Source: a virus
Length of the DNA stretch: 56,531 nucleotides
Virus record (IMG/VR): IMGVR_UViG_3300028578_000004
Coordinates: 1 to 56,531 of that record
Reading direction: 5' to 3' (one strand)
In this document: positions 2,801 to 54,000 of the stretch, piece by piece
How the letters are laid out: each line of letters starts with the position of its first letter
Numbering within the stretch: position 1 is the first letter of the stretch
Made by a program: the position numbers and the translations under genes
Notes under the pieces: model-generated
Databases searched by the model: none
The model's input: only the letters and a program-made list of their open reading frames with translations
Told to the model about the DNA's origin: nothing

Positions 2801-3250
2801 GTGGAGTCCCTGTGGCGATCGGACGCGTTACCGGCGCGCTTCTGGTCGAAGGTCCGGCGCTCCCCGAAGGGCTGCTGGCTGTGGACCGGAGCGATCGCGA
2901 AGAGCGGCTATGGCACGTTCTCCTTGAACGGTCGGACGGAGTACGCGCACCGCGTCGCCTGGCTGGAGCTCATCGGCCCGATCCCACAGGGACTCGAGAT
3001 CGACCATGTTAAGTGCGGCAGGCATCGCTGCGTGAACCCAGCGCACCTCCGAGTCGTCACGCACGCGCAGAACATGGCGCGCGAGATGCCCAAGGCGTGG
3101 GAGGGCAACCTAAAGAAGACGCATTGCCCGGCCGGCCACGAGTACACCGCGGAGAACACGTACATGGGGCCGAAGGGCAGAGACTGTCGGGCGTGTCGCT
3201 TGGAAGCGACGCGGCGGTGGAGGAAGAGACGGAAGGAATCGGCAGCGTGA
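2801..3250 (+). CDS. HNH endonuclease (HNH_3-type)
   Basis: CWLWTGAIAKSGYGTF, AHRVAWLELIGPIPQGLEIDHVKCGRHRCVNPAHL, then a CPAGHEY..CRAC zinc ribbon. GTG 2801 is in frame. Confidence 0.85.
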   Translation: MESLWRSDALPARFWSKVRRSPKGCWLWTGAIAKSGYGTFSLNGRTEYAHRVAWLELIGPIPQGLEIDHVKCGRHRCVNPAHLRVVTHAQNMAREMPKAWEGNLKKTHCPAGHEYTAENTYMGPKGRDCRACRLEATRRWRKRRKESAA

Positions 3251-3855
3251 CGCACTCAGACCTTCGGGTGTACGCACCCCACGAACTCGGGCACGATGGC
3301 TACCCGATCGCGTGGCATGAGACGGTCAAGCATCTAGTCCGCGAGCTGGCTGGCCACCGCTGCATTCGATGCGGGCACCCGTACCCGCCGGGGATCGCAA
3401 AGCGTTGTCGGGGCGGGGAGTGGACTCCCTGTGACGCGGGCTGCACGCACGCCGGGATCGTCTCGCTGCTCAACACGGAACCGACCGGCCCGGAGTGGAT
3501 TGATACGGAACTCGACCAAGGACCCAGCGCGGGTGAGCTCGTGGTCGCCGGGAAGGACGTGCTGGCCCGTTACCGCATCCTGACTGTTCACCATCTCAAC
3601 GGACATAAAACCGACTGCCGCTGGTGGAACCTGCTGGCGCTCTGTCAGCGTTGTCATCTACAGATCCAAGGCAAGGTCAGGCCGCATCGGCCGTACCCAT
3701 GGGAACACCGCCCGTGGTTCCGCCCGTACGCGGCAGGGTTCTACGCGGCGAAGTACCTAGGCGAAGACCTCACGCGTGAGGAGACTGAGGCCCGCCTAGA
3801 CGAACTGCTTGCCCTCGGGGCACGCGAGGACGCGGTCGAGCGGATGCCGCTGTAG
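3247..3855 (+). CDS. HNH-motif nuclease
   Basis: GTGA overlap start. CIRCGHPY, then LTVHHLNGHKTDCRWWNLLALCQRCHLQIQ (H-N-H core). Confidence 0.8.
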   Translation: MTHSDLRVYAPHELGHDGYPIAWHETVKHLVRELAGHRCIRCGHPYPPGIAKRCRGGEWTPCDAGCTHAGIVSLLNTEPTGPEWIDTELDQGPSAGELVVAGKDVLARYRILTVHHLNGHKTDCRWWNLLALCQRCHLQIQGKVRPHRPYPWEHRPWFRPYAAGFYAAKYLGEDLTREETEARLDELLALGAREDAVERMPL

Positions 3856-4098
3856 ATGCCTAAGCTCCCCGGTCCCCCGTACAGCGGAGCCGATTACCCG
3901 CAACCCCAAGGCATAGAAGTCGGTTGGTGGGGCGGCAAGTTCAAAACCGATCCGGATGGGGTGCTGCACTTTCGCGCCAAAGGATTCTTCGATGACCCGA
4001 TGCGCTGCGGAGCGTCACCGCGCGAGGACTGGCGGGGGAACCCGACCGAGTGGAAGTCCGAGTGCGTCGTGTGTTTCGACCAAGGGGCGATCTTTTGA
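3856..4098 (+). CDS. Hypothetical protein (80 aa)
   Basis: ATG immediately after the upstream stop. Coding-like GC3. Confidence 0.65.
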   Translation: MPKLPGPPYSGADYPQPQGIEVGWWGGKFKTDPDGVLHFRAKGFFDDPMRCGASPREDWRGNPTEWKSECVVCFDQGAIF

Positions 4099-4463
4099 AC
4101 CCCGTGTGCGGCAAGAGACATCTCGGAGCCTTCGATCGTTGCGAGCTCCCCGCCGGCCACGACCGCGCCCCACGCAAGCCCCTTCGGCAACGCTCCGAAA
4201 AGCAGGAGGTCAAAGAGTCCGAGTGGCAAGCAATCAAGCGCCGCAAGGTCAACCGGCAACGGGCGATTCACGGCTTCACCTTCTGCGAACGATGCGGCAA
4301 GCGCACCAAATGGCTCCAGTGCCACCACACGGACTACCGGAGCCGCGGAGGGTCGAACACCGAGGACAACGCCGAACTACTCTGCACGGGCCCGGGGTCA
4401 TGCCATGAGCGTGAACACGGCACGCCCTGGCCGAAAGATCGCGAAGACCCCGAAGGTACTTGA
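4095..4463 (+). CDS. HNH endonuclease
   Basis: CERCGKRTKWLQCHHTDYRSRGGSNTEDNAELLCTGPGSCHEREH. The start is taken at TTG 4095, which overlaps the upstream stop. GTG 4104 is an alternative. Confidence 0.8.
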   Translation: MNPVCGKRHLGAFDRCELPAGHDRAPRKPLRQRSEKQEVKESEWQAIKRRKVNRQRAIHGFTFCERCGKRTKWLQCHHTDYRSRGGSNTEDNAELLCTGPGSCHEREHGTPWPKDREDPEGT

Positions 4464-13327: not shown

Positions 13328-14974
13328 GTGGCTGACCCCGCCCCCAAGATCGAAGTCGCCCGCACCATGCCGACCGACCTGCTCACGAGCGGTCGATGGC
13401 GAACCTGGTCCGAGCCCGACAAGGTCAAGCTCCGCAACGTCTTAAGGCGCGCGAAGTTCCGGCGGACCTACGAGTACGACCCGGTCGCGTTCGTGCATGA
13501 CTGCTTCAAGTGGGACGACCTGCCGGACTCAGGGCCGGCCCCGTATCAGTCCGACGTGCTGGCGAAGCTCGTGGAGGAGCACCGGGTCGCGCTGCGCGGT
13601 CCCCACGGGTTGGGGAAAAGTTCCTGTCTGGCGTGGGCGATCCTGTGGTTCGCGCTCACCCGCGATGGCGACAACTGGAAGGTCCCGACCACGGCATCGG
13701 CACGGGCGCAACTTCGGCTCTACCTCTGGCCAGAGGTCCACGTTTGGGTTCGTCGACTACGGTGGGAGGCCATCGGTCGGGACCCGTTCATCGAAGGCCG
13801 CGACCTGCTGGACGAAGCCCTCAAACTCGACACCGGCGAGGCGTACGCGTTGGCATCGAACGACCCGGCGAAGATGGAGGGCGGCCACGCGGACCGGATG
13901 CTCATCATCTACGACGAGGCGAAGAAGATCCCGGCCGGTACGTTCGAGGCGTTCCAGGGAGCCGTGTCAAACGCCGGCCCCGAGACCGGCAGGGAAGCGC
14001 TCGAGCTGATGGGCTCGACCCCCGGCGACCCACATGGCCACTTCTACCAGGTGAACCAGAGGCGGGTCCCGGGCTACAAGCTCATCATCGTCACCAAGGA
14101 GATGGCGATCGCGGCGGGCCGGATGTCTCCCTCGTGGGTCGAGCGCATGAAGACCGTGTGGGGCGAGCACTCGGCGACGTACATCCGTAGGGTCGAGGGA
14201 AACTTCGCCGCCGGCGATGAGAAGTCCGTTCTGCCTCAAGCGTGGGTGGAGGCCGCGGTCGAGCGGTGGACGGAGGCCGCGGTCCCAGCAGTCGGTGACG
14301 CGGACCTGCTCGAGGGCAGGGTGTTCGACGGCCTGATGCTGCCGGAAGAGCTCGTGGGCCCGCTGTCGGTCGCGTCGATGGACGTCGCAGACTCGGGAGA
14401 CGACCGCACGACGATCGCACTGCGACACGGCCCGGCCATCATCCGGCTACAGGAGTTCCCGTACGACCCGGACGCCCACCTCATGGCCGCGACCGGTGCA
14501 CTGGTCGCGATCCTCAGGGGAGCGGAGGCTGGGTTCGCGACCGTTGACTCGGTCGGCGTCGGGGCCGGGGTGCTCGCGCGGCTCCAGGAGCTCCGACGCA
14601 CGGGCGAGATCCGTGAGGACCCCGTGGGCTTCATCGCCCAAGGGAAGTCCGACCTCATGGACGAGACCGGCTCTTACGGGTTCAGGGACCTGCGAGCCGA
14701 GGCGTGGTGGGGATTCCGACAGCGCCTGCACCCGACCAAGGGCGACGGGATCATGCTGCCACCTCACGATGAGCTGCAGGCCGAGCTCACGGTATCGGGA
14801 TGGCGCGCCTTGTCAGAAGGCCGCATCCGCATCGAAGAAAAGGACGAGGTCAAAAAGGCCGACCGCCTCGGCCGCTCCCCCGACCTCGCGGACGCGGTGG
14901 TCATGGCGTTCTGGGCGCGCCCCGCGGTCGCGTACTCGCAGACCGGACGGGGGCGACGGATTCCGGGGATGTAG
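13328..14974 (+). CDS. terL: Terminase large subunit
   Basis: 548 aa. Walker A LRGPHGLGKSS and Walker B LIIYDEAKK, with a C-terminal nuclease-like half. The start is GTG 13328, with ATG 13367 as an alternative. Confidence 0.9.
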   Translation: MADPAPKIEVARTMPTDLLTSGRWRTWSEPDKVKLRNVLRRAKFRRTYEYDPVAFVHDCFKWDDLPDSGPAPYQSDVLAKLVEEHRVALRGPHGLGKSSCLAWAILWFALTRDGDNWKVPTTASARAQLRLYLWPEVHVWVRRLRWEAIGRDPFIEGRDLLDEALKLDTGEAYALASNDPAKMEGGHADRMLIIYDEAKKIPAGTFEAFQGAVSNAGPETGREALELMGSTPGDPHGHFYQVNQRRVPGYKLIIVTKEMAIAAGRMSPSWVERMKTVWGEHSATYIRRVEGNFAAGDEKSVLPQAWVEAAVERWTEAAVPAVGDADLLEGRVFDGLMLPEELVGPLSVASMDVADSGDDRTTIALRHGPAIIRLQEFPYDPDAHLMAATGALVAILRGAEAGFATVDSVGVGAGVLARLQELRRTGEIREDPVGFIAQGKSDLMDETGSYGFRDLRAEAWWGFRQRLHPTKGDGIMLPPHDELQAELTVSGWRALSEGRIRIEEKDEVKKADRLGRSPDLADAVVMAFWARPAVAYSQTGRGRRIPGM

Positions 14975-15305
14975 GGGTCGGCCCGGCGAAGCTCGTGCAA
15001 GCCTGTGACCTGGGCAAACGCGCCCGATTGGCAAATCGTTTTCGCTTGGCCCCCGGCACGTTCGTACATGCCCGCCTAGGCATCGGGTCAGAATGAAATC
15101 GTTCATAAAACGTGGCGCTGAATCCGAGCGGGCCATCGCATGTCACGATGACGTCGTTCGGAGGTCGATCTGTCAACTGAGGAGCGGGGCGACCCCTTCA
15201 ACTCCGACCCGGTCTGTCTCACCGATCCCCGATGCTCGGCCGCCCCCGCCCCTTGCTCCTTCAAGGTGTTATCGGAGTGGGGGCGAAACCGAAAGCGCAT
15301 AGCCT

Positions 15306-15318
15306 GCGAATAATTCGC
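15306..15318. promoter_or_regulatory. Perfect palindrome GCGAAT-A-ATTCGC (operator-like)
   Basis: 13-nt AT-rich dyad in a GC-rich genome, 56 nt upstream of motif copy 2 and next to TTGCAA (15326-31). Confidence 0.35.
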
Positions 15319-15373
15319 GTCCCATTTGCAAACGGGAATATGACGCCCCTACCGAGTACACTTCCACCCAACA

Positions 15374-15386
15374 GGGATGAGCGACC
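15374..15386 (+). promoter_or_regulatory. Copy 2 of the 13-nt motif GGGATGAGCGACC
   Basis: Exact repeat. The internal ATG opens a 10-codon uORF (MSDLEEDPYG) whose stop overlaps the start region of the 15402 ORF. The GAGGAGGA RBS follows the motif. Confidence 0.7.
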
Positions 15387-15401
15387 TTGAGGAGGACCCC
15401 T

Positions 15402-15587
15402 ATGGCTGATGCCGCGCCCAGCGTTGCGCTGCCCGTAGACTGGGCGTGTCGACGATGCAGGTCACCGATCGAGGCGTGTGCCAACTGCCGGTTGTCGGAT
15501 CGGTCGTACATCGGTTGCGACTATCACGGCTACTGCTCAGAGTGCGCTGACGCCTTGGGTAACGAACTAGCTCGGTGGACCTCGTGA
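15402..15587 (+). CDS. Cys-rich zinc-ribbon protein (61 aa)
   Basis: GAGGAGGA RBS 7 nt upstream of ATG 15402. Contains CRRC, CANC and CSEC. Confidence 0.7.
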   Translation: MADAAPSVALPVDWACRRCRSPIEACANCRLSDRSYIGCDYHGYCSECADALGNELARWTS

Positions 15588-15766
15588 CCAACGACTGGTC
15601 CGTCACCGAGTACGCCCTCGGAACGGACGACCACCCGACACAACCCGTGACGTTGACGCGTACGGACCTCGACTGGCGCGGAACGCACTCACGCGTGATC
15701 GGTAGGTTCGCGGACGCGCGTCTAGCAGGGATAGCGAAGGCCGAAGGGGAGGCGATGGCGAGATGA
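15584..15766 (+). CDS. Hypothetical protein (60 aa)
   Basis: GTGA overlap start. GTG 15575 is an alternative. Confidence 0.55.
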   Translation: MTNDWSVTEYALGTDDHPTQPVTLTRTDLDWRGTHSRVIGRFADARLAGIAKAEGEAMAR

Positions 15767-15942
15767 TCCGTCGCATTCGCAGGATCGAGCGCGCAGTCGA
15801 AGACGAGTTCCCCGGTGCCGCGGTCGAAGTCGAGGAGGCGCGCTCGGGGTCGGGCGAGATCGTGCTGCACATCTTCACCGGCCACACGGAGTTGTCGCGT
15901 GGGCGCGTCCGTAAGATGACCGAAGAGGAGTTGGCGAGATGA
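15763..15942 (+). CDS. Hypothetical protein (59 aa)
   Basis: Hand-translated, with ATGA overlaps at both ends. Confidence 0.55.
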   Translation: MIRRIRRIERAVEDEFPGAAVEVEEARSGSGEIVLHIFTGHTELSRGRVRKMTEEELAR

Positions 15943-17462
15943 CCGAGCAGAAGATACCGACCGCGCAGGACCTGGCCGAGGCACTTCGCGCCGGGCTAAC
16001 GGCACCAGTCGGCGAGTGGTCATGTGGGGAGTTGTACTGGACCGACGTGATCGAGTTCGCAGCCCGCCGTCTCGAGCACAACGTCCTCCTGATGAGCGGG
16101 TTGGACGAGCGGTTCGCGGACGACGTGACGCGCGCTGTCTCGGAGGCGACGGGTGTCCCGGCGGTCGCTGTCCCCGCTGGCACGCATGTCACCGCGATCG
16201 AGCCGACCGAGGAGACGGTCGCGTACTTCATGCGCCGCGGGAGTGAGGAGACGCGCGGTGACCTGCGCGAGGTAGCCGAGAGGTTGCACGAGGTCACCGG
16301 CAAGCTCGTCTTCTGGACGGACGACGGAGACCTGCGATCCGTCAGCGAGGAGGAGATGCGCGAGGCTGGATGGGTGCGAGCCGAGGATGCACCTGTGCCG
16401 TGGGCAGCGGATTCGAGCGCATCGACTGTCCGCCGATTCGAGGCCCTGATCCACCTGCACGAAGGGTTCGGGGAGGAGCGCCCGATCCCCACTCAAGACG
16501 AGGTCACGGACGCGATCCACGCCGCTGTGGTCCAAGGTCTGTGGAACTTCAACGGCCAGACGCGGGTAAGGGAAGCGGGAGCGAAAGAGCAGGGGCGAGT
16601 CCTCACCGAGAAGGAAGGACCGCGCACCACCGAGACCGCTGTAGCCGAGTATCTAGAGGCGATGGCGGCGCGGCTGGACTCATCGCCCGGCGTGCAGACC
16701 TGGCAGTCGGCTGCGCTACGCGAGGCAGCGGAGGTCGTTCGCGGGCAGGCCGGTGGAGGGGGAACGTCGGACGAGGCCGAACCCCTCGAGCCTGGCACTC
16801 ACTGGGAGCACTTCCTCGGGGGCCTGTCGCTGAGGATCGGCGAGAAGGGTGAGGCGTGGCTCATCTCGGTCTATCCGCCGGATGCAGAGCCATGCCGCTA
16901 CAGCATCGGGCGAGCCGATGCGGAATACCTCGCCGACCTCCTGTCGCGCTGGGCGAAGACGTGGCCGAAGTGGGGGCCCCCGGAGGCGGACGGCCCCTCA
17001 GAGACCATCTGGCCGGAATGCCCGCAGTGCGGGAAGCACGCCACCGTGCACGATACCGGCCAGGAACTGTTCACCTGCCCAGAGGGGCACTCGTGGCCTG
17101 CACCTGTAGCGGCAGACACCGAACCGCCCGAGACAGCCGAGGTCTCCGTACCGGTGGTGAAGGTGACGGTGCCAGCGGAGCACGCGGACATGGACCACGA
17201 AGTCGATGCCTACCTCCAGGACGACGGCACGGTCATCGCGAAGTGCTCGTGCGGACAGTGGGGTACGGACAGCGGGGGACCCGTGCGCGAGAAGCCCAAG
17301 CCTCTGCGGACCAGGTGGGGATGCCAGTGCTGCACCCACGTCGTGGAACTCACGGAGGACGGTCGCTACCCCGATCACGAGTTCATGGCGGGTGTCAAGT
17401 GCGCGTGGTCCGGTAAGCCCGCAGGAGGCGGCGACCGCAGAGCCTCAGGTCGCCCAGGATGA
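15939..17462 (+). CDS. Large hypothetical protein with C-terminal zinc ribbons (507 aa)
   Basis: ATGA overlap start. The C-terminal part carries CPQCGK..CPEGH and CSCG..CQCC. I recognise no enzymatic motif. Confidence 0.8.
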   Translation: MTEQKIPTAQDLAEALRAGLTAPVGEWSCGELYWTDVIEFAARRLEHNVLLMSGLDERFADDVTRAVSEATGVPAVAVPAGTHVTAIEPTEETVAYFMRRGSEETRGDLREVAERLHEVTGKLVFWTDDGDLRSVSEEEMREAGWVRAEDAPVPWAADSSASTVRRFEALIHLHEGFGEERPIPTQDEVTDAIHAAVVQGLWNFNGQTRVREAGAKEQGRVLTEKEGPRTTETAVAEYLEAMAARLDSSPGVQTWQSAALREAAEVVRGQAGGGGTSDEAEPLEPGTHWEHFLGGLSLRIGEKGEAWLISVYPPDAEPCRYSIGRADAEYLADLLSRWAKTWPKWGPPEADGPSETIWPECPQCGKHATVHDTGQELFTCPEGHSWPAPVAADTEPPETAEVSVPVVKVTVPAEHADMDHEVDAYLQDDGTVIAKCSCGQWGTDSGGPVREKPKPLRTRWGCQCCTHVVELTEDGRYPDHEFMAGVKCAWSGKPAGGGDRRASGRPG

Positions 17463-17659
17463 CCCTTGCCCTAACGATCGCGGTGTGCGCGGTGGTCGGC
17501 GGACTCATCGGGGCCGTGATCGGTGGCGGGTTCGCCGACATCGCGAGCGACGCGGATCTGCGGGAGGAGTGGTTCCTCCATAGACTGAGGCTCATGGCGA
17601 TCATCGGTGAGGCCGCGCTACTGGGGGCCGCGACGTGGGTGGGGTCGTGGGTCGGGTGA
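17459..17659 (+). CDS. Small membrane protein (66 aa)
   Basis: ATGA overlap start. Two hydrophobic segments (LALTIAVCAVVGGLIGAVIGG and AIIGEAALLGAATWVGSWV). Confidence 0.65.
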   Translation: MTLALTIAVCAVVGGLIGAVIGGGFADIASDADLREEWFLHRLRLMAIIGEAALLGAATWVGSWVG

Positions 17660-17826
17660 ACGATGACGAACTCATGCAATGGGCGACACCCGCTGAGCGT
17701 GACCTTCTGCGATCGCTCGACCGACAACGCCGTCTTTGGACCGGCGTGATATGGCTGCTCGGGTTCGTGGCGGCGTGTTGGGCGGTTGTCATCATCGTGA
17801 TGATCGTGCGGGCGTGGGTCGGATGA
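17656..17826 (+). CDS. Small membrane protein (56 aa)
   Basis: GTGA overlap start. TM segment GVIWLLGFVAACWAVVIIVMIV. Confidence 0.6.
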   Translation: MNDDELMQWATPAERDLLRSLDRQRRLWTGVIWLLGFVAACWAVVIIVMIVRAWVG

Positions 17827-17996
17827 GACGCGACGTCTGCCCCTACTGCGGCTGGCCCCTGGTCATCGTCACGACGCCCGCGGGCATCTCGCAGCTGCAC
17901 GACTTCCCGGTCTGTCGCCAGTGGTGGAGCGAACGTAAGCCCGGGCGCGTTGTGAACCTCGCGGCGCCGTACCTGCCGGTGACCATCAGCGTATGA
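17823..17996 (+). CDS. Small Cys-containing protein (57 aa)
   Basis: ATGA overlap start. Contains a CPYC motif. Confidence 0.55.
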   Translation: MRRDVCPYCGWPLVIVTTPAGISQLHDFPVCRQWWSERKPGRVVNLAAPYLPVTISV

Positions 17997-18187
17997 GGCG
18001 TACGGAGTATGAGTTCGTAGAGAAGACCGAGGTCGTGCGGGCTGCAAGTCGTGGTGCCCTTCAGCGCGCACGTCAGGAGGGCATCAGAAGCGCGACGTTC
18101 GTCGCTGCGGAACCGATGAAGGGTGGCTATATGCGGGTCCGTCTTCGAGGTATTGATCCCTACATCGGAGCGGGAGGCCACCCATGA
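17993..18187 (+). CDS. Hypothetical protein (64 aa)
   Basis: ATGA overlap start. Confidence 0.55.
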   Translation: MRRTEYEFVEKTEVVRAASRGALQRARQEGIRSATFVAAEPMKGGYMRVRLRGIDPYIGAGGHP

Positions 18188-18209
18188 CGACCCAAGGGAG
18201 GAGTAGCCG

Positions 18210-18350
18210 GTGAGCACGCTCGTACGCGTGACGATGAGGGTTGACGACGACAACGACGTCAGGGCAGCAGAGGCCGTAGTCGACGTGCTGAACCTGGTTC
18301 CGGGCGACGTCCTGGAGACGGAGATTCTGGAGGCCACCCATGACGACTGA
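18210..18350 (+). CDS. Hypothetical acidic small protein (46 aa)
   Basis: Hand-translated. GGGAGGAG RBS, then GTG 18210. Confidence 0.5.
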   Translation: MSTLVRVTMRVDDDNDVRAAEAVVDVLNLVPGDVLETEILEATHDD

Positions 18351-18489
18351 CCCCCGCAAGCCACGCCCCACCAAGCGCAAGCGCCGAAAGAAGAGACGCG
18401 CTCGAGACCTACCGGAAGACGCCCAGCGGTCCACGAAGATGAAGCCGCGACGCGCGGTGATCGGGGACAGGGACTCGTGGGGGCGATGA
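18340..18489 (+). CDS. Hypothetical highly basic small protein (49 aa)
   Basis: Hand-translated. Contains the KRKRRKKRR run, and the stop overlaps the next ATG. Confidence 0.45.
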   Translation: MTTDPRKPRPTKRKRRKKRRARDLPEDAQRSTKMKPRRAVIGDRDSWGR

Positions 18490-18683
18490 GCGAGACCGTC
18501 AGCGCCATTCCCGATGTGTTGGAGGTCATCCCGGGCATGAGCACGCAGAGGCGCGTTGAGTTGTCGTGCGGACATCTGCGATTGCTGATGCACGCGCAAA
18601 CGGGGCATCCCCTTGTCGGGGTGTACGCAGAGTGCGATGAGTGCGGGGGTCGCCTGCGACAGGTTCAGGAGGTCATTCGGTGA
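18486..18683 (+). CDS. Hypothetical protein with a CDEC motif (65 aa)
   Basis: ATGA overlap start. GTG 18477 is an alternative. Confidence 0.6.
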   Translation: MSETVSAIPDVLEVIPGMSTQRRVELSCGHLRLLMHAQTGHPLVGVYAECDECGGRLRQVQEVIR

Positions 18684-18922
18684 CCGGCCCCCACATCTGC
18701 GGCGCCTGCGGACAGTGCGCGGTGACGGTAGAGCGCGACTCCGAAGAGGTTCGCGTCGTCTGCTCGGCCTGCAACACGAAGAGGGTGCACGTACCCGTGT
18801 GGGCGACGGCCGATGATCGGGTGCTCGCGATGGTGATCGGCCGGCCGCCCGTGAAGCGCGGGAAGCCCAGGAAGCGGAGCGGCGGGAATATCGCATCGGT
18901 GACCGGGGGAGTGCGACTGTAG
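18680..18922 (+). CDS. Zinc-ribbon protein (80 aa)
   Basis: GTGA overlap start. Contains CGAC and CSAC pairs. Confidence 0.6.
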   Translation: MTGPHICGACGQCAVTVERDSEEVRVVCSACNTKRVHVPVWATADDRVLAMVIGRPPVKRGKPRKRSGGNIASVTGGVRL

Positions 18923-19348
18923 GTGAGTGCCGAAGTGTTCTATTACCACGGTGGCCCACCCGATCTGCGCGTGGGTGATCTGATCGAGCCGCAACCCATG
19001 GACCGGGGCCGCCATCTTGTCGATGGGTGCCCGGTGTGCGAGGCCCGGAAGAACGGGAAGCCCTCCGACTACGACCAGAACCACCGATTCGATCGGGTCT
19101 ACGTCACAACCGACAAGTTCGTTGCGAAGTGTTTCGCCGCTGGCTATCCGAGAGGGAGCCTCTACCGGGTCGAGCCGATCGGCGACTTGGAACCCGATCC
19201 AGAGCATGAGCAGTCGTTTGCGGTGCCTGCGGCTCGAATCGTGAAGGTCGCTGAACGAGGGATCGACCCGAGCCGTTGGTCGAAGGCGGACGTTCGGAGG
19301 TTCCTGAAGCTCGGCGGGGTCGCCCAAAGCCTCCGTACAACCACGTAA
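18923..19348 (+). CDS. Arr-family (rifampin ADP-ribosyltransferase-like) ADP-ribosyltransferase homologue
   Basis: By eye it shows the Arr pattern: FYYHGGPPDLRVGDLIEP (compare the Arr consensus Y-x-HGT..L.VGD.L.P), RVYVTTD, then GSLYRVEPIGDLEPDPE (compare Arr consensus I-F/Y-I-VEP-x-G-x-x-E-DDPN) and RIVKV. It carries an extra CPVCEARKNG insertion. Confidence 0.65.
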   Translation: MSAEVFYYHGGPPDLRVGDLIEPQPMDRGRHLVDGCPVCEARKNGKPSDYDQNHRFDRVYVTTDKFVAKCFAAGYPRGSLYRVEPIGDLEPDPEHEQSFAVPAARIVKVAERGIDPSRWSKADVRRFLKLGGVAQSLRTTT

Positions 19349-19372
19349 TTCCCCCTGTAGCATTCCCGCCCA

Positions 19373-19714
19373 ATGAGGGCACCCACTAGAACGCGCACCC
19401 GCGTCCCCCGACAGGTCACGTCCGCGGACATCCTTCCGGCGCGCGTGGTCGGGCTCGAAGGCGGACAGGAGGCCGACCACCGCGTCTACATCTCGGACGG
19501 CACACTCCGGGTGTTCCGGGCGCGTAAGGCCCCTCAGCGTGGCTCTGAGCGCGTCCTAGAGGCAGCAGTCGCTTCCGCCACTCTGACCGGCCGCGGGACC
19601 TGGACCGTTCAGACGGAGGACGGGCAGACCCTCACCGTCACCAAGCAAGGCCGATGTGCGTGCGGGTCGCCCTTGCAGTCGATCAGTCGGCGCGAGCTCA
19701 GGGGGATGGCGTGA
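19373..19714 (+). CDS. Hypothetical protein (113 aa)
   Basis: ATG 19373 has no clear RBS, so the true start may be further downstream. Confidence 0.5.
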   Translation: MRAPTRTRTRVPRQVTSADILPARVVGLEGGQEADHRVYISDGTLRVFRARKAPQRGSERVLEAAVASATLTGRGTWTVQTEDGQTLTVTKQGRCACGSPLQSISRRELRGMA

Positions 19715-19815
19715 CCACGCGCGAAAAGACTCTCGTGTTCGCGACGCTGCTCGTCGGGTTGGTCAACAACGTGGTCCTGTTGGTCCATGCGATAGCGGCA
19801 GCGAGGGGGCGGTGA
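19711..19815 (+). CDS. Very small membrane peptide (34 aa)
   Basis: Hand-translated. GTGA overlap start and the hydrophobic core LVFATLLVGLVNNVVLLVHAIAA. Confidence 0.4.
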   Translation: MTTREKTLVFATLLVGLVNNVVLLVHAIAAARGR

Positions 19816-19819
19816 TTCG

Positions 19820-20089
19820 ATGAGGCAACGACTCCGCGACCTATGGCGACGCCTCCCGTGGGGACGGACGCGACCTCAGCCGGTGGGTGTATGTCCCTCG
19901 TGCGGGAGTTTCAAGGTTCGCGAGCGCGAGCCCGAGTGGCCGAACAAGCCGCCGTTCTGGTGTGCCGACTGCGGCGACAAGTGGGCGGGCATCTACAGCC
20001 CGGCGATCAAGGCGAGCGACCTCAGCGTCCGCGTCCTGAGTCCGATCAGGGCTGACCTCGGGGTTATCGAAGACTGGCCGGGTTCGTGA
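19820..20089 (+). CDS. Zinc-ribbon protein (89 aa)
   Basis: Contains CPSC and CADC pairs. Confidence 0.65.
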   Translation: MRQRLRDLWRRLPWGRTRPQPVGVCPSCGSFKVREREPEWPNKPPFWCADCGDKWAGIYSPAIKASDLSVRVLSPIRADLGVIEDWPGS

Positions 20090-20400
20090 TCGAAGCAGCC
20101 GCCCTCGAAGCCCTCGCCCTCTGCATCCTCATGGCCCTCGCGGCCTATCGGATCTTCCGTCTGCTCGCAGTCGACGACTTCCCGCCGATCGTGTGGGCGC
20201 GCGACCGCGTGGATGACTGGATCGCGGAGAGGTTCGGGGACGAGTGGGCGGACGGGCTGACCTGCGGGTGGTGTCTCGGCGCGTGGTGCTCATTCGCGGT
20301 GGTCGGTCTCACCGACGCGTTCACGTCCGTCCCGCTGGTCGGGCTGCAGCTAGGCGCGGTCTCGACGATCGTCGGCATTCTCGGATCGAAGGTCGACTAG
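20086..20400 (+). CDS. DUF1360-like membrane protein
   Basis: GTGA overlap start. AYRIFRLLAVDDFPPIVWARDRV..LTCGWCLGAWCS, followed by a TM segment, matches my recollection of the DUF1360 pattern. Confidence 0.6.
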   Translation: MIEAAALEALALCILMALAAYRIFRLLAVDDFPPIVWARDRVDDWIAERFGDEWADGLTCGWCLGAWCSFAVVGLTDAFTSVPLVGLQLGAVSTIVGILGSKVD

Positions 20401-20778
20401 ATGGCAGAGTGCGCCTTCTGCGAGATCATCGCTGGCAACGCTCCGGCTAAGTTTGTGAATCGCAACGCCGACGCCAGCGCGTTCGTGCCTTTGAACCCCG
20501 TGGTGGAGGGGCACGTGCTGGTGGTCCCTCACAGGCACGCCCGATACATTTGGGAACTCGACTCGTCGTCTTTAGCGATGGCTGTGGCGATGGCCGCCCA
20601 GCTGGCCACAAACATCGCCTGCAACGTCATCCAATCGAACGGGGTAGCCGCGACGCAGACGGTTCCGCACGTTCACTTCCACATCGTTCCACGGAGCGGG
20701 GGCGATGGCCTGATGTTGCCGTGGACAGGGCAGACCGAAGGCGCGGTTCCAAGCACTCCTGAAGGTCCCTGTGACTGA
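20401..20778 (+). CDS. HIT-family (histidine triad) nucleotide hydrolase or transferase
   Basis: N-terminal CAFCEII and the histidine triad VPHVHFHIVPR. Confidence 0.85.
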   Translation: MAECAFCEIIAGNAPAKFVNRNADASAFVPLNPVVEGHVLVVPHRHARYIWELDSSSLAMAVAMAAQLATNIACNVIQSNGVAATQTVPHVHFHIVPRSGGDGLMLPWTGQTEGAVPSTPEGPCD

Positions 20779-20797
20779 GCCGGGAAGGGTGGGCTAG

Positions 20798-21001
20798 ATG
20801 GCGAAGCTCGGAACCGTTCGCACCGACCCCGGCGCGATGAAGTGCCAGGTCAATGGCTGTGGCGCGGATGTGACGGCCGTGATCGAACTGAAGGCCACGC
20901 CGTTGGAGCACGAATCCGACGACGTTGTCTACTTCGGGATCGAGTCGAACATCATCGCCCTAGAAGGGTGCGAGCACGCTGAAGCCTGGGAGCCCGAGTA
21001 A
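20798..21001 (+). CDS. Hypothetical protein (67 aa)
   Basis: ATG 20798 with GGAAGGGTGGG upstream. Confidence 0.6.
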   Translation: MAKLGTVRTDPGAMKCQVNGCGADVTAVIELKATPLEHESDDVVYFGIESNIIALEGCEHAEAWEPE

Positions 21002-23377
21002 GTGGGGGCGCTCGCGCGACTTGCGCGGCGTAGGGGGCTGACGGCAGCGGCAAACGTGCTCGCCCCGGCGCACTCGGCCCTTCCGATCCCCGATGCCTGG
21101 CCGGCCCCGGTGGTCGCAGCAGCGCGCGTCATTGGGATCGCGGATGACCGCACGGAGGCCAGAAAGCTCATCGAGCGCCAGGCGAAGTGGCAGGACCACG
21201 CGTGGGACTACTTCGACGCGCTCGGCGAGGTCAAGTACTCGGGCAATTTCATCGGCAACGCGCTGTCCAAGCTGATCCTGTTCCCGGCGCGACGTCCGGC
21301 CCCCGGACAGCAGCAACCGGAGCCGATTGAGGACGCGGCCCCCATGGATGCGCTCGCCCGCCTCGAGGGCCCGCTCGGGGGCCACCCAGAAATCATGGGC
21401 GCTGCGGGCGTGCACTTCAGCATCCCCGGCGAGTGCTACCTGATCGGTCGCGAGCTGGACCCCGGCGACGAGCGATGGGAGATCCGGGCGAAGGACGAGG
21501 TCAAGCGATCGGCTGAGGGCAAGGTCATCCTCATTGACGGCGGGGACGACAAGGAGAAGGTCGAGCTCGGGGAAGACTCGATGCTCGTTCGCATGTGGAG
21601 TCCGCACCGTCGACGCGCGTGGCAGGCCGACTCACCTCTGCGCGGCGTGCTGTCTCAGTGTGAGGAGCTTCTGATCCTCGACCGCATGGCGCGCGCGACG
21701 GAGCGGAGCCGCAACAACGCTGGCGTGCTGGCCGTGCCGAACGAACTGCGCAAGGTGCGTCGGCAGGTGGGGACGGACGCGAGTTTGGTAGCGGAAGAGG
21801 GCGACCTCGTGGACGAGCTGCTCGAGGCCCTGGGTACTCCGGTCAAAGACGAGGGTCACGCCAACGCGATCGTTCCGCACCTGCTGTTCGGGGAAGAGAA
21901 GTACCTCGACAAGGTCCGGCTGATCGAGCTGTCGCGCACGCTGGACGCGTGGATCGATGTGCGCACGGAGCGCGTGCAGAAGCGGCTCGCGGGGGGTCTG
22001 AACCTTCCGATTGAAGTCGTGCTCGGTATCGGGTCCGCGAATCACTGGTCCGCCTGGGCTATCGACGAGTCGGCGTTCAAGGCGCACCTAGAGCCCCTGA
22101 CGCTGACGATCCTGTCGAGCCTCACGGTCGGATACCTGCATCCGATGCTCCGGGCCGCGGGGGTGCCGAACTGGCGCGACTACATCATTTGGTACGACCC
22201 GGTTCGTCTCGTGGCCCGACCGAACGCGGTGGGCGACGCGAAGGATCTCCACGACCGAGGGGTCATCCGAGACGAAGACCTGCGGGGGGCCGCGGGCTAC
22301 GACGAGACGTCCGCCCCGGATGAGGATGAGATTCAGCGTCGGCTCATATGGCGATCATCGGGCCGACCGTCGGTAGCCGTGGACGGGGCCGAGACCCCAG
22401 AGCAGGGTCCACCCGAGCAGGAAGACTCGCAGGCGTCCGTCACCGCGGCGGCTACCCGCGAAGACCCCGACCTCGCGCGCCTCGCGCGCCGACAGGCCGA
22501 CCTCGACCGCCAGCTGTACGCGCGTCTGGAGGCCGCGTTCGAAGCCGTACTCGACCAAGTTCTAGACCGCGCCGGTGCCCGGGTCGTGCAGGCGGCGAAC
22601 AAGGGCCGGGGCCGGACGAAGGGCACGGCAGCGGCGTCACCCGCCGTCCAAGCGCGCGTGGCCGCCGGCGCGTTGGTGAAGGACGTACCGAGGCGACAGG
22701 TGATTAAGACCCTCGGCCCGGCGATCGTGGCGCAACTCGGGCTCCAGGAGGAAGACCTGCTACGCGGTGCGTTCGACGACTTAGAAGACAGGTTCCGCGC
22801 GTGGGTAGGCCAGACGCAGACGGCAGCCCTCGGACTCGTCCCGGACTTGACGGACGCCGAGAGACGAGACGCGGAGCGGGAGTTCGAGCGCCTGCTGGAC
22901 GACGCGTGGGCGTGGACGCGAGACGCGCTGACGGACCTCGCGCGCGAACGCCTGCACGACCCCGACCCCCGCGCACCTGAGAACGGCGAGCACGACGCGA
23001 CGGCGACCGTTCCGTTTGCGATCATCCGCGAGGCCGTGGCGAGGGCAGGTGGAGCAGTCGGGCCGGACGCCCCGGTCGTGTCCGCCGCGGTTCTGGACCC
23101 CGTGAAGACGGCGCTGGGACTCGCGACCGGATGGCTCATGCAAAAGCTGTTCCGCTCCAAGGGGATCGAAACCGAAGGCTGGGTGTGGGAGTACGGCCCG
23201 TACCCCAGAACCACCGAATTCGAGCCGCACGCGGACCTCGATGGCACGGAGTTCGTGAACTTCGATGATGCGGTGCTGGCGAACAACGAGGGGTGGCCAC
23301 GGTACGCGCACTACCATCCCGGGGACCACGAGACGTGCCGTTGCTCAGCACGTCCGGCGCTGGTGAGGGTCCGATGA
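21002..23377 (+). CDS. Portal protein fused to a MuF-like minor head protein domain
   Basis: 791-aa uninterrupted ORF. The N-terminal two thirds look portal-like (WQDHAWDYFDALGEVKYSGNFIGNALSKL). The C-terminal HADLDGTEFVNFDD..YHPGDHETCRC is the SPP1 gp7 / Mu gpF signature. Confidence 0.8.
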   Translation: MGALARLARRRGLTAAANVLAPAHSALPIPDAWPAPVVAAARVIGIADDRTEARKLIERQAKWQDHAWDYFDALGEVKYSGNFIGNALSKLILFPARRPAPGQQQPEPIEDAAPMDALARLEGPLGGHPEIMGAAGVHFSIPGECYLIGRELDPGDERWEIRAKDEVKRSAEGKVILIDGGDDKEKVELGEDSMLVRMWSPHRRRAWQADSPLRGVLSQCEELLILDRMARATERSRNNAGVLAVPNELRKVRRQVGTDASLVAEEGDLVDELLEALGTPVKDEGHANAIVPHLLFGEEKYLDKVRLIELSRTLDAWIDVRTERVQKRLAGGLNLPIEVVLGIGSANHWSAWAIDESAFKAHLEPLTLTILSSLTVGYLHPMLRAAGVPNWRDYIIWYDPVRLVARPNAVGDAKDLHDRGVIRDEDLRGAAGYDETSAPDEDEIQRRLIWRSSGRPSVAVDGAETPEQGPPEQEDSQASVTAAATREDPDLARLARRQADLDRQLYARLEAAFEAVLDQVLDRAGARVVQAANKGRGRTKGTAAASPAVQARVAAGALVKDVPRRQVIKTLGPAIVAQLGLQEEDLLRGAFDDLEDRFRAWVGQTQTAALGLVPDLTDAERRDAEREFERLLDDAWAWTRDALTDLARERLHDPDPRAPENGEHDATATVPFAIIREAVARAGGAVGPDAPVVSAAVLDPVKTALGLATGWLMQKLFRSKGIETEGWVWEYGPYPRTTEFEPHADLDGTEFVNFDDAVLANNEGWPRYAHYHPGDHETCRCSARPALVRVR

Positions 23378-32862: not shown

Positions 32863-33048
32863 ATGGAGACCCCCTGGGCGAACTGCACGACCTGCGGCGA
32901 ATACCGCCCGGTGTTCGTGCGCTTCGAGCCTGACGGAGCCCCGTACTGCCGCGGGTGCGGTGCACATCGCATGGAGCTGGAGGTCTTCCCCGCTGCCCTA
33001 GAAGACGTGCCGATCGTTGACGCAACGCAGGACGATCCGCCCGAGTGA
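32863..33048 (+). CDS. Zinc-ribbon protein (61 aa)
   Basis: AAGGAGG RBS. Contains CTTC and CRGC pairs. Confidence 0.7.
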   Translation: METPWANCTTCGEYRPVFVRFEPDGAPYCRGCGAHRMELEVFPAALEDVPIVDATQDDPPE

Positions 33049-34004
33049 ATCTCGCGGCGCTCCTGCACATGGGCGTTCCGCGTCACGGCGCCGGGGCGGA
33101 ATGGTACGTACATGATCTTCTGAGGTGGCTGGTCAGCCGCGGCCACACAGTGACCGTCTACGTGGCTCGCGGCAAGGACGACCCGTACGAACTTGACGGC
33201 GTCCGCTACGTCTCGTCACCGACGATCCCCGATGCCGAAGCGCGCGCTGCCGACCTGCTGGTCACGCACCTGGATATGACGCGGCACACGATCATGCTCG
33301 CCCGACGAGTGGGAAAGCCGACTGCCTTCGTCGTGCACAACCATCGCCAGCTAGCGTTTCACCGCGTACGCCCGCGCGACGCTGCGCTCGTGATCTTCAA
33401 CTCCCGGTGGGTCGCGCGTGCCTCGAAGTGGAGGGGGCCGCAGATTGTCCTTCCGCCCCCGATCCAGGCGTCCCGCTACCAGGTGACCGTAGAGGGCGAC
33501 GCGATCACACTCCTAAACCTCTCAGAGGCCAAGGGAGGGCCGCTACTGTTCGAGCTGGCCCGAAGGATGCCCGGACGCCGGTTCTTGGCTGTAAGGGGCG
33601 CATACGGCCGTCAGGAGGTCCCTGACGACGTGCCGGCCAACGTGGAGGTGTGGGACAACCAACCTGATGTCCGCGAGGTCTACCGGCAGACGCGCCTTCT
33701 GCTCATGCCGTCGGCATATGAGTCGTGGGGACGGGTCGCGGTCGAGGCTGCCGCGTCCGGCATTCCGACCATCGCGCATCCGACCGAGGGGCTGCTCGAG
33801 TCCGTGGGGCCGTGCGCGATCTTCTGCGACCGGGCCGACCCCGGCCAGTGGACGAGAGCGATCGGCGACTTGGACGACCCGGTCGAGTACCACCGGGCAT
33901 CGCGTCTGGCAGTTGCTCGTGCGACCGAGCTCGACCCCGTGCCGTGGCTGTACGAGGTCGAGGCGGCGCTACGGGAAGCGGCCGGCGCGATGGTGAAGGC
34001 GTGA
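33045..34004 (+). CDS. GT-B fold glycosyltransferase (GT4-like)
   Basis: GTGA overlap start. The C-terminal motif is LLLMPSAYESWGRVAVEAAASGIPTIAHPTEGL (E-x7-E type). Confidence 0.8.
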   Translation: MNLAALLHMGVPRHGAGAEWYVHDLLRWLVSRGHTVTVYVARGKDDPYELDGVRYVSSPTIPDAEARAADLLVTHLDMTRHTIMLARRVGKPTAFVVHNHRQLAFHRVRPRDAALVIFNSRWVARASKWRGPQIVLPPPIQASRYQVTVEGDAITLLNLSEAKGGPLLFELARRMPGRRFLAVRGAYGRQEVPDDVPANVEVWDNQPDVREVYRQTRLLLMPSAYESWGRVAVEAAASGIPTIAHPTEGLLESVGPCAIFCDRADPGQWTRAIGDLDDPVEYHRASRLAVARATELDPVPWLYEVEAALREAAGAMVKA

Positions 34005-34168
34005 GCAAAGGCGAGGTCCGCTACGACGAGAAGGGTCCATTCCGTCTCATGGCAAAGGCCGAGGGGTACGTCATGTGCCGCCGACCGGGCCTGATGGTCA
34101 CCGTGAAGACGGTCAAGGAGTGGGAGGCGTTGTCGCCCGCCCCCGTAGAACCCGAAGAGAAGCCGTGA
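34001..34168 (+). CDS. Hypothetical protein (55 aa)
   Basis: Hand-checked, with a GTGA overlap start. Confidence 0.5.
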   Translation: MSKGEVRYDEKGPFRLMAKAEGYVMCRRPGLMVTVKTVKEWEALSPAPVEPEEKP

Positions 34169-34797
34169 ATCGCTGGCGTCGGTTCCGCCGCGCCTACTAC
34201 CGGGCGTTCGTGGCGATGCTCCCGTGGCTCGGACACGCGCTCATCCTCATCGGGATCGGCGGTGCGATCGCGACGATCGTCGACAAGCAGAAGACAGCTA
34301 TCGCCGCTCAGACGCACACGAAGTACGGGTGGGTCAAAGGTCGCCCATTGCGCTTTATACGCGGGCACGCAGCGCGCAAACAGGTCTTTCCGTACCGCGA
34401 ATGGAGTGAAGCGCTCTACGTCATCAGCGACCAAGGGTACGAGAGTCCGTGCTGGCTATGGCAGGCGCTTATAGACCGTACTGGCTACGGGCGATTCGGC
34501 TCGCGAGGCCTGGCACATAGGTTTGCCTACGAGAAGTTCGTGGGACCGATCCCAGAAGGGTTCCATCTCCACCACGAGTGCCATGTGCGCTCCTGCGTCA
34601 ACCCGGCGCATCTCACGCCGTTGTCCCCCTCGGATCATCTGAGGGGGCACCGGCCACCACCACCCACCTCATGTCCACAGGGGCATCCGTACGATGAGGC
34701 GAACACCTACCTGACGCGACAGGGTCGGCGCGTATGCCGGATATGCAGACGCACCTATTTCCGGAACTGGAAGGCCAAGCAACGTGCCAACCAGTAA
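34165..34797 (+). CDS. HNH endonuclease (HNH_3-type) with an N-terminal TM-like segment
   Basis: CWLWQALIDRTGYGRF, AHRFAYEKFVGPIPEGFHLHHECHVRSCVNPAHL, and a CPQGHPY..CRIC ribbon. Same architecture as the 2801 gene. Confidence 0.85.
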   Translation: MNRWRRFRRAYYRAFVAMLPWLGHALILIGIGGAIATIVDKQKTAIAAQTHTKYGWVKGRPLRFIRGHAARKQVFPYREWSEALYVISDQGYESPCWLWQALIDRTGYGRFGSRGLAHRFAYEKFVGPIPEGFHLHHECHVRSCVNPAHLTPLSPSDHLRGHRPPPPTSCPQGHPYDEANTYLTRQGRRVCRICRRTYFRNWKAKQRANQ

Positions 34798-36426: not shown

Positions 36427-36656
36427 GCGGGCAAGGCGGCTGGTACTGCTCCGACTGCGGCCAGGTCGTATCGGGGCTCCCATCGGGAATTGTGCGCTGC
36501 CCGAACTGCGGTCACCTCGGCCTGCGTGGATTCGTCAACGCGGAACCCGTTCGAGTTCGCTGCCCCGAAGGGTGCGACTGGGAGGGCTGGGACGATGGCG
36601 GTGTCAACGATGACCTCGGCCAGCACATGCGCCGCGAGCACTTCACGCCACAATGA
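36423..36656 (+). CDS. Zinc-ribbon protein (77 aa)
   Basis: GTGA overlap start. Contains CSDC, CPNC and CPEGC. Confidence 0.65.
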   Translation: MSGQGGWYCSDCGQVVSGLPSGIVRCPNCGHLGLRGFVNAEPVRVRCPEGCDWEGWDDGGVNDDLGQHMRREHFTPQ

Positions 36657-53657: not shown

Positions 53658-54000
53658 GAAGCGGAAAATCGCGGGGAAGACCTACAGCGAACACAGGCTC
53701 GTCATGGAGAAGAAGCTCGGGAGACCGCTTCGCGCCGATGAGGTCGTGCATCACATTGACCACGACCGCTTCAACAACGATCCCGACAACCTCACGGTTA
53801 TGTCGCACGCCGAGCACTCGGCGCTGCACAACAACCGGTACCCACGGGTCAAGGTATGCGAGACGTGTGGGAAGGAATACGAACCGGCACCCACCAAGCG
53901 CGCTCGGTCGAGGACGTGCTCGCGGGACTGCTTGCGGGCCTTGCAGTCGAAGATCGCGATCGAGAACAACGCCGCAAGTAGGTTGCCGTGGAACGCGTAA
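53641..54000 (+). CDS. HNH endonuclease
   Basis: EHRLVMEKKLGRPLRADEVVHHIDHDRFNNDPDNLTVMSHAEHSALH, followed by a CETCGK ribbon. Confidence 0.85.
   Translation: MPQRYKKRKIAGKTYSEHRLVMEKKLGRPLRADEVVHHIDHDRFNNDPDNLTVMSHAEHSALHNNRYPRVKVCETCGKEYEPAPTKRARSRTCSRDCLRALQSKIAIENNAASRLPWNA

Follow-up and report, generated by a model that had tools for sequence, protein, structure and literature searches.

A divergent Arr-like ADP-ribosyltransferase with a CxxC donor-loop insertion encoded by a tailed phage

The Arr enzymes, bacterial ADP-ribosyltransferases (ARTs) of the Pfam family PF12120 that inactivate rifampicin by modifying the rifamycin C23 hydroxyl, are related to a gene carried by the virus record IMGVR_UViG_3300028578_000004, which was analysed here over 56,531 nucleotides (hereafter the window). 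All characterised PF12120 members modify a small molecule (bioRxiv 10.1101/2025.02.20.639278; PMC13246000), and rifamycins have been described as the sole known small-molecule targets of ADP-ribosylation (bioRxiv 10.1101/2025.02.20.639278). In Arr-ms, catalytic and donor roles are assigned to H19, G20, Y49, A57 and D84 (PMC13246000, bioRxiv 2025.02.20.639278, PMC6092378), and the motif SN[Y/F] or SH[F] marks the NAD entrance of Arr enzymes (bioRxiv 2026.05.04.722716; PMC6092378). The V32-H46 loop of Arr-ms is the counterpart of the donor loop (D-loop) in human ARTs (bioRxiv 2025.02.20.639278); it holds the Phe39 gate, which organises the NAD+ pocket upon rifamycin binding (bioRxiv 2026.05.04.722716). 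Rifampin is bound by the beta5-beta6 loop, with K91 as a cation-pi lid and V87, L92 and P96 ('hydrophobic 2'), together with F9 (bioRxiv 2026.05.04.722716; PMC6092378). A second pocket, 'hydrophobic 1', consists of F39, M126, L130, L133, A139 and I141, and the alpha2 motif reads M[RK][DE]xL (PMC6092378). Rifampin-ART members were reported from Microbacterium and Gordonia phages and from Sinorhizobium phage PBC5 by Iyer et al. 2022 (PMC9503650), who proposed both protection of the host from antibiotics and action on diffusible immunity compounds.

We tentatively read the window gene as encoding an active mono-ADP-ribosyltransferase that stands alone, uses NAD+ and belongs to the Arr (PF12120) superfamily, with a low-molecular-weight acceptor other than rifamycin as the favoured substrate. 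The original prediction, made from the letters alone, had proposed a phage-encoded Arr homologue with a CxxC insertion not familiar from Arr proteins, and had suspected a substrate other than rifampicin.

Arr fold and donor site

The window ART matches the Pfam Arr-ms profile (E 5.4e-7; 30.2 bits against a gathering score of 25), the match being split into two stretches because of the CxxC insertion, and also matches PHROG 17296 (E 6.8e-28). In a phmmer search of PDB sequences Arr-ms was the sole match (E 0.016), with H9/H19, Y60/Y49 and D92/D84 aligned. Comparison by hhalign of a 34-sequence homologue alignment with canonical Arr (Arr-ms, M. ulcerans Arr and Arr-2) gave a probability of 96.8% (E 3e-10) for the CxxC subfamily. 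The AlphaFold2 model built on the same 34 sequences reached a predicted local distance difference test score (pLDDT) of 89.9 and a predicted template-modelling score of 0.80. When this model was compared to the PDB with Foldseek, the sole matches at E<=0.001 were 2hw2 (E 1.4e-5) and 9iaf (E 1.7e-5), both Arr-ms, with a probability of 1.00 and a template-modelling score of ~0.53; weak ART toxins came next, at E>=0.07. The Arr fold is thus clearly present in the predicted structure. The homology to Arr and the order of the landmarks claimed in the original prediction are borne out by these searches, and its quoted strings (YYHGG..DLRVGDLIEP, RVYVTTD, GSLYRVEPIGDLEPDPE, RIVKV and GCPVCEARKNG) were all found in the 141-residue product. 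The profile search and structure prediction that it had proposed as checks gave a significant Arr match and a confident model whose only significant fold matches are Arr structures.

The window ART (141 residues) is close in size to Arr-ms (143) and Arr-2 (150), and shares with Arr-ms, Arr-2 and Arr-X (PDB 2HW2, 9IAF, 9IBA) the small single-domain ART fold and the H-G...Y...D-P donor residues. Published functional residues of Arr-ms (PMC6092378, PMC13246000, bioRxiv 2025.02.20.639278, bioRxiv 2026.05.04.722716) were transferred through the hhalign alignment, which maps H19 to H9, G20 to G10, Y49 to Y60, A57 to A68 and D84-P85 to D92-P93 (Table 1). The string 'RHLVDG' of the window protein resembles 'SHFEDG' of Arr-2, an SH[F] variant of SN[Y/F], and is then followed by the 18-residue CxxC insertion. 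On this alignment the donor-site residues H9-G10, Y60, A68 and D92 are clearly present, together with an 'H-hydrophobic-x-D-G' loop motif resembling that of Arr-2, and we infer that the enzyme is active. Among 66 diverse CxxC-bearing representatives drawn from an exhaustive profile search, H9, G10 and G11 are invariant (66/66); Y60 is invariant in the alignment of close homologues (A1) and is Tyr in 58 and Phe in 6 of the representatives.

The catalytic acid is less uniform, and here the possibility arises of a non-catalytic or NAD-hydrolysing derivative, namely a binder of NAD+ or ADP-ribose, a plain NADase or a redox-regulated protein using its CPxC pair. The column aligned to the acid, 92, is Ser in 46/66 CxxC representatives, some copies are duplicated in tandem with one repeat degenerate in appearance by eye, and a CPxC at a helix N-terminus also resembles the motifs of thiol-disulfide oxidoreductases. 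The window protein itself has H9, Y60 and D92 with E94 as a second acid, and its H-Y-D set is intact; its nearest subgroup likewise carries 'D-P'. Moreover, the invariant H9, G10 and G11 with Tyr or Phe at position 60 in 64/66 representatives form the pattern expected of a working donor site, and column 94, Glu in 50/66, is conserved as an acid where column 92 is Ser. Loss of transferase activity is consequently a most improbable explanation of the gene.

The 'D-P' and 'S-x-E' forms occur 34 times each among CxxC-bearing proteins and 32 and 4 times, respectively, among CxxC-less ones (Fisher p 8.5e-5, in a test that ignores phylogeny and on a sample that over-represents the close relatives of the window protein). 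The 'S-x-E' form thus appears nearly confined to CxxC bearers (34/38; proteins P0001-P0185), with the same disregard of phylogeny in the statistics. The subgroup of the window protein pairs CxxC with 'D-P' and looks intermediate, the wider CxxC clade often having 'S-x-E-D'.

The CxxC insertion and the rifamycin pocket

The CxxC insertion pointed out in the original prediction is real and missing from canonical Arr. Aligned by hhalign, Arr has a gap of 18 columns exactly at C36-N53, right after the conserved 'DG' of the loop, and the three canonical Arr sequences contain 0-1 Cys in total. Both C36 and C39 are kept without exception in the close homologues (34/34) and in the representatives (66/66). 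In the AlphaFold2 model a helix (37-43) begins directly after C36, and pLDDT is 82-89 for residues 21-60. Potential ligands are spaced H31-x4-C36-x2-C39-x14-H54 in the window protein; a His lies within 10 residues upstream of CxxC in 60/66 representatives and a second His between CxxC and the catalytic Tyr in 44/66. The window protein itself may have a full Cys/His zinc site, and a Cys2-His-Asp site or a redox-active CPxC pair is a further possibility for the module. The module probably stabilises the donor loop, in the window protein via a putative metal.

The acceptor side diverges from Arr at most of the positions that contact rifampin. V87, T88, K90, K91 (the lid), L92 and P96 of Arr-ms all lie inside an 8-residue deletion and are without counterpart, W59 (the 'VWG' segment) is deleted, and F9 has no counterpart because the N-terminus of the window protein is 10 residues shorter. 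Within 'hydrophobic 1', F39 and M126 are replaced by L32 and F127 and stay hydrophobic, L130 is replaced by G131, and L133, A139, V140 and I141 fall outside the alignable region, the C-terminus of the window protein being variable (pLDDT 57-64). From the 12 published rifampin-pocket residues plus S99, counterparts were found only for F39 (L32), M126 (F127) and S99 (S98). The C-terminal helix is rich in Arg, and the M-x3-L-x2-L hydrophobic pocket of Arr is missing from it. As aligned, the window protein has clearly lost W59, F9, the lid loop with K91 and the greater part of the hydrophobic pocket of the C-terminal helix and tail. The window ART also fails the NCBIfam rifampin_ARR equivalog NF033144 (24.7 bits against a cut-off of 130) and NF000318 (19.5 against 250) and, judged from its sequence, is no Arr orthologue.

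These differences bear on whether the gene could confer resistance to ansamycins of the rifamycin type, by ADP-ribosylating antibiotics of neighbouring actinomycetes and keeping host RNA polymerase active in infection or lysogeny. Rifamycins block host RNA polymerase, and phages without a polymerase of their own depend on the host enzyme. The hosts are soil Actinomycetota and share the habitat of the rifamycin producers, which live among them. Arr is the sole family known to ADP-ribosylate rifamycins, its H-Y-D site is kept here, and the residues replacing M126 and F39 are hydrophobic. Arr-X, with a less hydrophobic cleft, handles rifamycins, at times faster (PMC13246000), and host protection was called the 'straightforward interpretation' by Iyer et al. 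2022 (PMC9503650). The opinion in the original prediction that antibiotic protection would bring a phage no evident benefit is thus wrong. Against resistance stand the wide shortfall in NCBIfam score, an identity to Arr-ms of only ~20%, the deletion of the beta5-beta6 loop with its K91 lid and of W59, the absence of the F9 segment and the unalignable L133, A139, V140 and I141. In addition, the Arr DPN[V/L] motif reads DPEH, and the gating loop of F39 is rebuilt round the CxxC module. We consider resistance unlikely. The few remaining pocket counterparts and the NCBIfam scores lend support to the earlier suspicion that the substrate would not be rifampicin, and the acceptor is probably another molecule: retention of the NAD+ machinery together with loss of the rifamycin-binding elements, in a clade of 317 clusters at E<=1e-10, points to a different acceptor and, with it, to a possibly novel phage use of NAD+ directed at the chemistry of hosts or competitors.

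Virome studies list arr matches among antibiotic-resistance genes. Since this clade passes the Pfam Arr-ms profile, fails NCBIfam and lacks the rifampin site, such matches should not be scored as resistance genes unless assayed.

Small-molecule and macromolecular acceptors

Given an acceptor other than rifamycin, a low-molecular-weight one is suggested because the protein is minimal, carries no targeting domain, has a near-neutral isoelectric point and belongs to a family with small-molecule precedent. Phage ARTs of this kind were assigned to a low-molecular-weight network by Iyer et al. 2022 (PMC9503650). A second line of argument comes from a phosphoesterase fusion, a DUF4326 neighbour and HIT genes in three lineages. 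A CxxC-ART fused to a calcineurin-like metallophosphoesterase (P0077, 391 residues; L016 722-2217, also L017) was found in two samples, directly downstream of a DUF4326 gene; for the DUF4326 family, Iyer et al. 2022 (PMC9503650) predict a role in the processing of phosphates carried by ADP-ribose derivatives. Columns 65, 69, 124 and 125 hold conserved basic residues on the acceptor side in the representatives, and a polar or anionic low-molecular-weight acceptor is our tentative choice.

Under this reading, the CxxC module would form a small metal-stabilised knuckle, with H31/C36/C39/H54 as the ligand set in the window protein. The knuckle would rigidify the enlarged D-loop, so that NAD+ binding would become independent of rifamycin occupancy. 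ADP-ribose would pass to an acceptor that is polar or anionic, not a rifamycin, and lies between helix alpha1 and the Arg-rich C-terminal helix. The acceptor could be an anti-phage metabolite, a nucleotide or an NAD-derived molecule, and the enzyme would act as an accessory counter-measure during infection. Tpt1/KptA, which acts on RNA 2'-/5'-phosphate ends, and DarT, which acts on ssDNA bases, are small NAD+-dependent ARTs with non-protein acceptors and with phosphoesterase partners in their pathways. They set a precedent for the use of a hydroxyl, a phosphate or a base of a nucleotide as acceptor. The window ART has no significant sequence or fold match to them (Foldseek matches beyond Arr are at E>=0.07) and no DarG-like neighbour.

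Several points weigh against a low-molecular-weight acceptor acted on in this way. The links to a phosphoesterase, to DUF4326 and to HIT are sporadic, and the commonest neighbour family reaches no more than 9 of 34 ART groups. A macromolecular target would agree equally well with the RecT fusion, with the open cleft and with the surrounding replication and recombination genes. The cleft of Arr-X is also less hydrophobic and rifamycins are still modified (PMC13246000). Our literature search found no characterised phage Arr-like enzyme and no biochemical test of the clade. As for the knuckle, both flanking His of CxxC are present in only 40/66 representatives, and in seven close homologues the whole protein contains just 2 Cys and 2 His, the catalytic His included, so that a four-ligand Cys/His site cannot be clade-wide. 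A classical Cys4 or Cys2His2 zinc site was ruled out as a clade-wide feature on the same ground, several members having only 2 Cys and 2 His.

The enzyme could instead be an effector that ADP-ribosylates a macromolecule. Its target might be a protein of host or phage (e.g., RNA polymerase, or a factor in recombination or repair) or else an end or a base in DNA or RNA, and the modification would serve to divert host functions or to shield the phage DNA, in the manner of T4 Alt/ModA/ModB, DarT or Tpt1. Deletion of the K91 lid loop should open the acceptor cleft, and basic residues are conserved on two acceptor-side helices. One homologue is fused to RecT (L018 4395-5453); the other architectures comprise four tandem ART duplications and one N-terminal region with 'DCDDT', an HAD-like motif, without Pfam match (proteins P0039, P0046, P0073, P0081 and P0163). 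The gene usually lies amid genes for RusA, RecT, ERF with an exonuclease, ParB and SSB-like proteins (the last by eye), an argument which is weak because the early region houses most actinophage accessory genes. Those phage ART families for which Iyer et al. 2022 (PMC9503650) record a biochemical characterisation target proteins or nucleic acids, and roles of M. smegmatis Arr in the DNA-damage response beyond rifampicin have been reported (PMC3138739). By contrast, no characterised PF12120 member modifies a macromolecule (bioRxiv 10.1101/2025.02.20.639278; PMC13246000), and the window ART has no recognisable targeting or nucleic-acid-binding domain. Isoelectric points in the clade range from 4.9 to 9.1, that of the window protein being near neutral; the clade is not uniformly basic, and this range ruled out a strongly basic, DarT-like nucleic-acid binder. 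Finally, no conserved macrodomain, ARH or NADAR antidote occurs in the window open reading frames (ORFs) scanned or in the neighbourhoods, even though temperate phages carry the gene. A macromolecular target is on balance doubtful, and a low-molecular-weight acceptor is still the reading that we favour.

A bolder version of the latter, which we rate as decidedly unlikely, would make the whole CxxC Arr-like clade a counter-defence family that inactivates a non-rifamycin small molecule, such as an immune signal derived from a nucleotide or from NAD or an anti-phage metabolite of actinomycetes, by ADP-ribosylation, a metal- or redox-stabilised D-loop replacing substrate-gated NAD+ binding. If true, this would add another natural class to the small-molecule substrates of ADP-ribosylation, next to the rifamycins. 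The host-takeover or counter-defence role put forward in the original prediction is not shown by any of our results, which include neither a conserved partner gene nor a match in a defence library.

Distribution, locus and neighbouring genes

A large protein collection contains 35 homologues of the window ART (E 3.5e-92 to 2e-17), and the exhaustive profile search with the clade returned 973 representative clusters at E<=1e-3, of which 317 also passed E<=1e-10. The window protein carries the signature of the PHROG 17296 clade, HGG...H-x(0-7)-[DE]-G-C-x-x-C...Y. By tblastn, 46 deposited phage records were matched, all at <=45% identity and many annotated 'ADP-ribosyltransferase'; 24 are Microbacterium phages and 16 Gordonia phages, with a few from Streptomyces, Sinorhizobium, Arthrobacter and Mycobacterium. 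CxxC is present in Gordonia phage Bosnia and Arthrobacter phage BruhMoment and missing in the Microbacterium, Sinorhizobium PBC5 and Streptomyces proteins. IMG/VR holds 126 matching stretches, and in BFVD the fold recurs in many short phage proteins that are uncharacterised. When 185,579 species genomes were scanned in a pattern-limited way, 34 loci were obtained, 21 with CxxC, mostly in Actinomycetota with a few in Myxococcota or Proteobacteria. All ten long-contig homologues inspected are phage or prophage, mostly of Actinomycetota, including 'bacterial' Myceligenerans and Nocardia assemblies. The CxxC Arr-like clade is thus phage- or prophage-borne in every context inspected, unlike the canonical arr examples retrieved, which lie on bacterial plasmids, one of them in an integron.

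Bosnia gp69 and BruhMoment gp58 (PHROG 17296) belong to the same CxxC clade, with the module HHDGCPWCEARA.GEAH. They are stand-alone small genes in Actinomycetota phages, 36-45% identical to the window ART, annotated 'ADP-ribosyltransferase' by SEA-PHAGES and among the homologues listed by Iyer et al. 2022. The window ART differs from them in having H-x4-C (H-x2-C in the others), 'D-P' ('S-x-E-D' in the others) and a site between terminase and portal (replication or early region in the others). The CxxC-less phage Arr-like proteins (Microbacterium phage Jollipop gp53 of 106 residues, PBC5 orf74, Streptomyces phage TurkishDelight gp70 and short BFVD entries) share the fold and HGG...Y...DP, are 30-39% identical to the window ART, also miss the long Arr lid loop by eye and have a shorter D-loop. 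The window ART is consequently a new divergent member of a phage clade that had already been noticed, the clade itself being a structural variant of Arr. The novelty implied in the original prediction was overstated, as phage rifampin-ART homologues were published in 2022 and are annotated in many deposited phage genomes; the value of the finding is limited to the variant features and to function. Our literature search found no paper describing the CxxC insertion or the loss of the rifampin loop.

Table 1. Features of the ART gene and its surroundings in the window
Feature	Coordinates	Strand	Evidence
Arr-superfamily ADP-ribosyltransferase gene, 141 residues, GTG start, TAA stop	18923..19348	+	ORF and translation, Pfam, PHROG, hhalign, AlphaFold2/Foldseek
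Shine-Dalgarno-like GGGGGAG, 11 nt 5' of the ART GTG start	18905..18911	+	read from sequence
H9-G10-G11, nicotinamide-site motif, equivalent to Arr-ms H19-G20-T21	18947..18955	+	hhalign mapping
H31-L32-V33-D34-G35 donor-loop (D-loop) motif, cf. Arr-2 'HFEDG' and Arr-ms 'NFEAG'	19013..19027	+	hhalign, N38 to H31 and F39 to L32
18-residue insertion C36-N53 (CPVCEARKNGKPSDYDQN) with C36-x-x-C39; H31 upstream, H54 immediately downstream	19028..19081	+	hhalign gap
Y60, equivalent to catalytic Y49 of Arr-ms	19100..19102	+	hhalign mapping
D92-P93-E94; D92 aligned to catalytic D84 of Arr-ms	19196..19204	+	hhalign mapping
H95-S98, site of the 8-residue deletion relative to the Arr-ms beta5-beta6 'rifampin-binding loop'	19205..19216	+	hhalign gap
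~6-kb block of ~14 small ORFs including ART, between TerL (13328-14974) and portal (21002-23377)	14975..21001	+	PHROG/Pfam annotation
HIT-family gene, ~1 kb downstream of ART	20401-20778	+	Pfam HIT E 6e-17; PADLOC ThsC model E 4e-18

The ART gene directly adjoins the TAG stop (18920-18922) of the preceding ORF. No promoter-like sites and no + strand terminator-like sites were found between 15000 and 21500; because of their absence over this interval the gene is probably co-transcribed with its neighbours, and the idea of a moron with its own signals was ruled out. Its codon-position GC of 0.68/0.46/0.74 is of the coding type. An antisense ORF of 271 residues (18665-19480, - strand) covers the entire gene and is most simply a high-GC artefact, as GC over its codon positions (0.78/0.51/0.68) does not follow a coding pattern; a naive gene caller that goes by length nevertheless preferred it over the real ART gene.

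The window, a complete JGI contig of 56.5 kb from an uncultured actinobacterial phage, carries genes for TerS, TerL, portal, major head protein, tape measure and endolysin, and thus represents a tailed phage. No near-identical DNA was found for it among deposited phages, and its portal shares at most ~34% identity with portals of actinophages, those of Microbacterium and Arthrobacter among them. The Microbacterium phage Phinky, distantly related by its portal, has TerL and portal almost side by side; the block that separates them in the window looks like an accessory-gene island. The ART gene of the clade lies mostly in early, replication or recombination regions, the window copy instead between TerL and portal. 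Also within the block are small Cys-rich ORFs (18477-18683 and 18641-18922), a weak Lar-like zinc-ribbon ORF (19820-20089; 17.3 bits, below the Pfam cut-off of 28.6) and a phrog_781 protein (20086-20400).

A tblastn search of the other 14 ORFs (15939-21001) against the first homologue loci found only ART in common. Clustering of the neighbours at 75 IMG/VR loci in 34 ART groups gave a commonest family in 9 groups (SSB by eye), the rest reaching at most 6; an operon or toxin-antitoxin idea was ruled out, as no neighbour family occurs in more than 9 of the 34. Neither the scanned ORFs of the window nor the homologue loci, going by their Pfam lists, showed macrodomain, ARH or NADAR genes. PADLOC gave no match for the ART or the ART-phosphoesterase fusion, which ruled out the ART as a known defence or anti-defence component.

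The HIT gene downstream of ART matches the model of ThsC, a HIT protein that accompanies 2.4% of Thoeris systems and was hypothesised to make or degrade an ADP-ribose-derived signal. HIT genes lie within ~1.5 kb of ART in three lineages (the window, L042 and L053/L057/L060). They are widespread in actinophages (265 records), also without ART, and Phinky has its HIT gene in a different operon. A functional HIT-ART pair was downgraded because it recurs in only two further lineages and because HIT is a common accessory gene, located elsewhere in Phinky.

Other genes of the window deserve a brief mention. A 507-residue ORF just 3' of the terminase (15939-17462, +) has no Pfam, PHROG or PADLOC match, and a 1219-residue ORF after the tape measure (44437-48096, +) has no Pfam match and a marginal PHROG one (E 8.8e-4). 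No integrase turned up among the window ORFs scanned; a Gp3-like, 'recombination directionality factor-like' protein is encoded at 103-1266 (+; PF18897, E 2e-38). Four HNH endonuclease genes are scattered at 3013-3855, 4050-4463, 34075-34797 and 53641-54000 (all +), one of them inside the structural module. The same module contains two glycosyltransferase-type genes, at 33045-34004 (+) and 36653-37774 (+); one is a GT4 that also matches PF20706 ('GT4 in conflict systems') and the other is CDP-glycerol glycerophosphotransferase-like, and their products may glycosylate virion or host-surface components.

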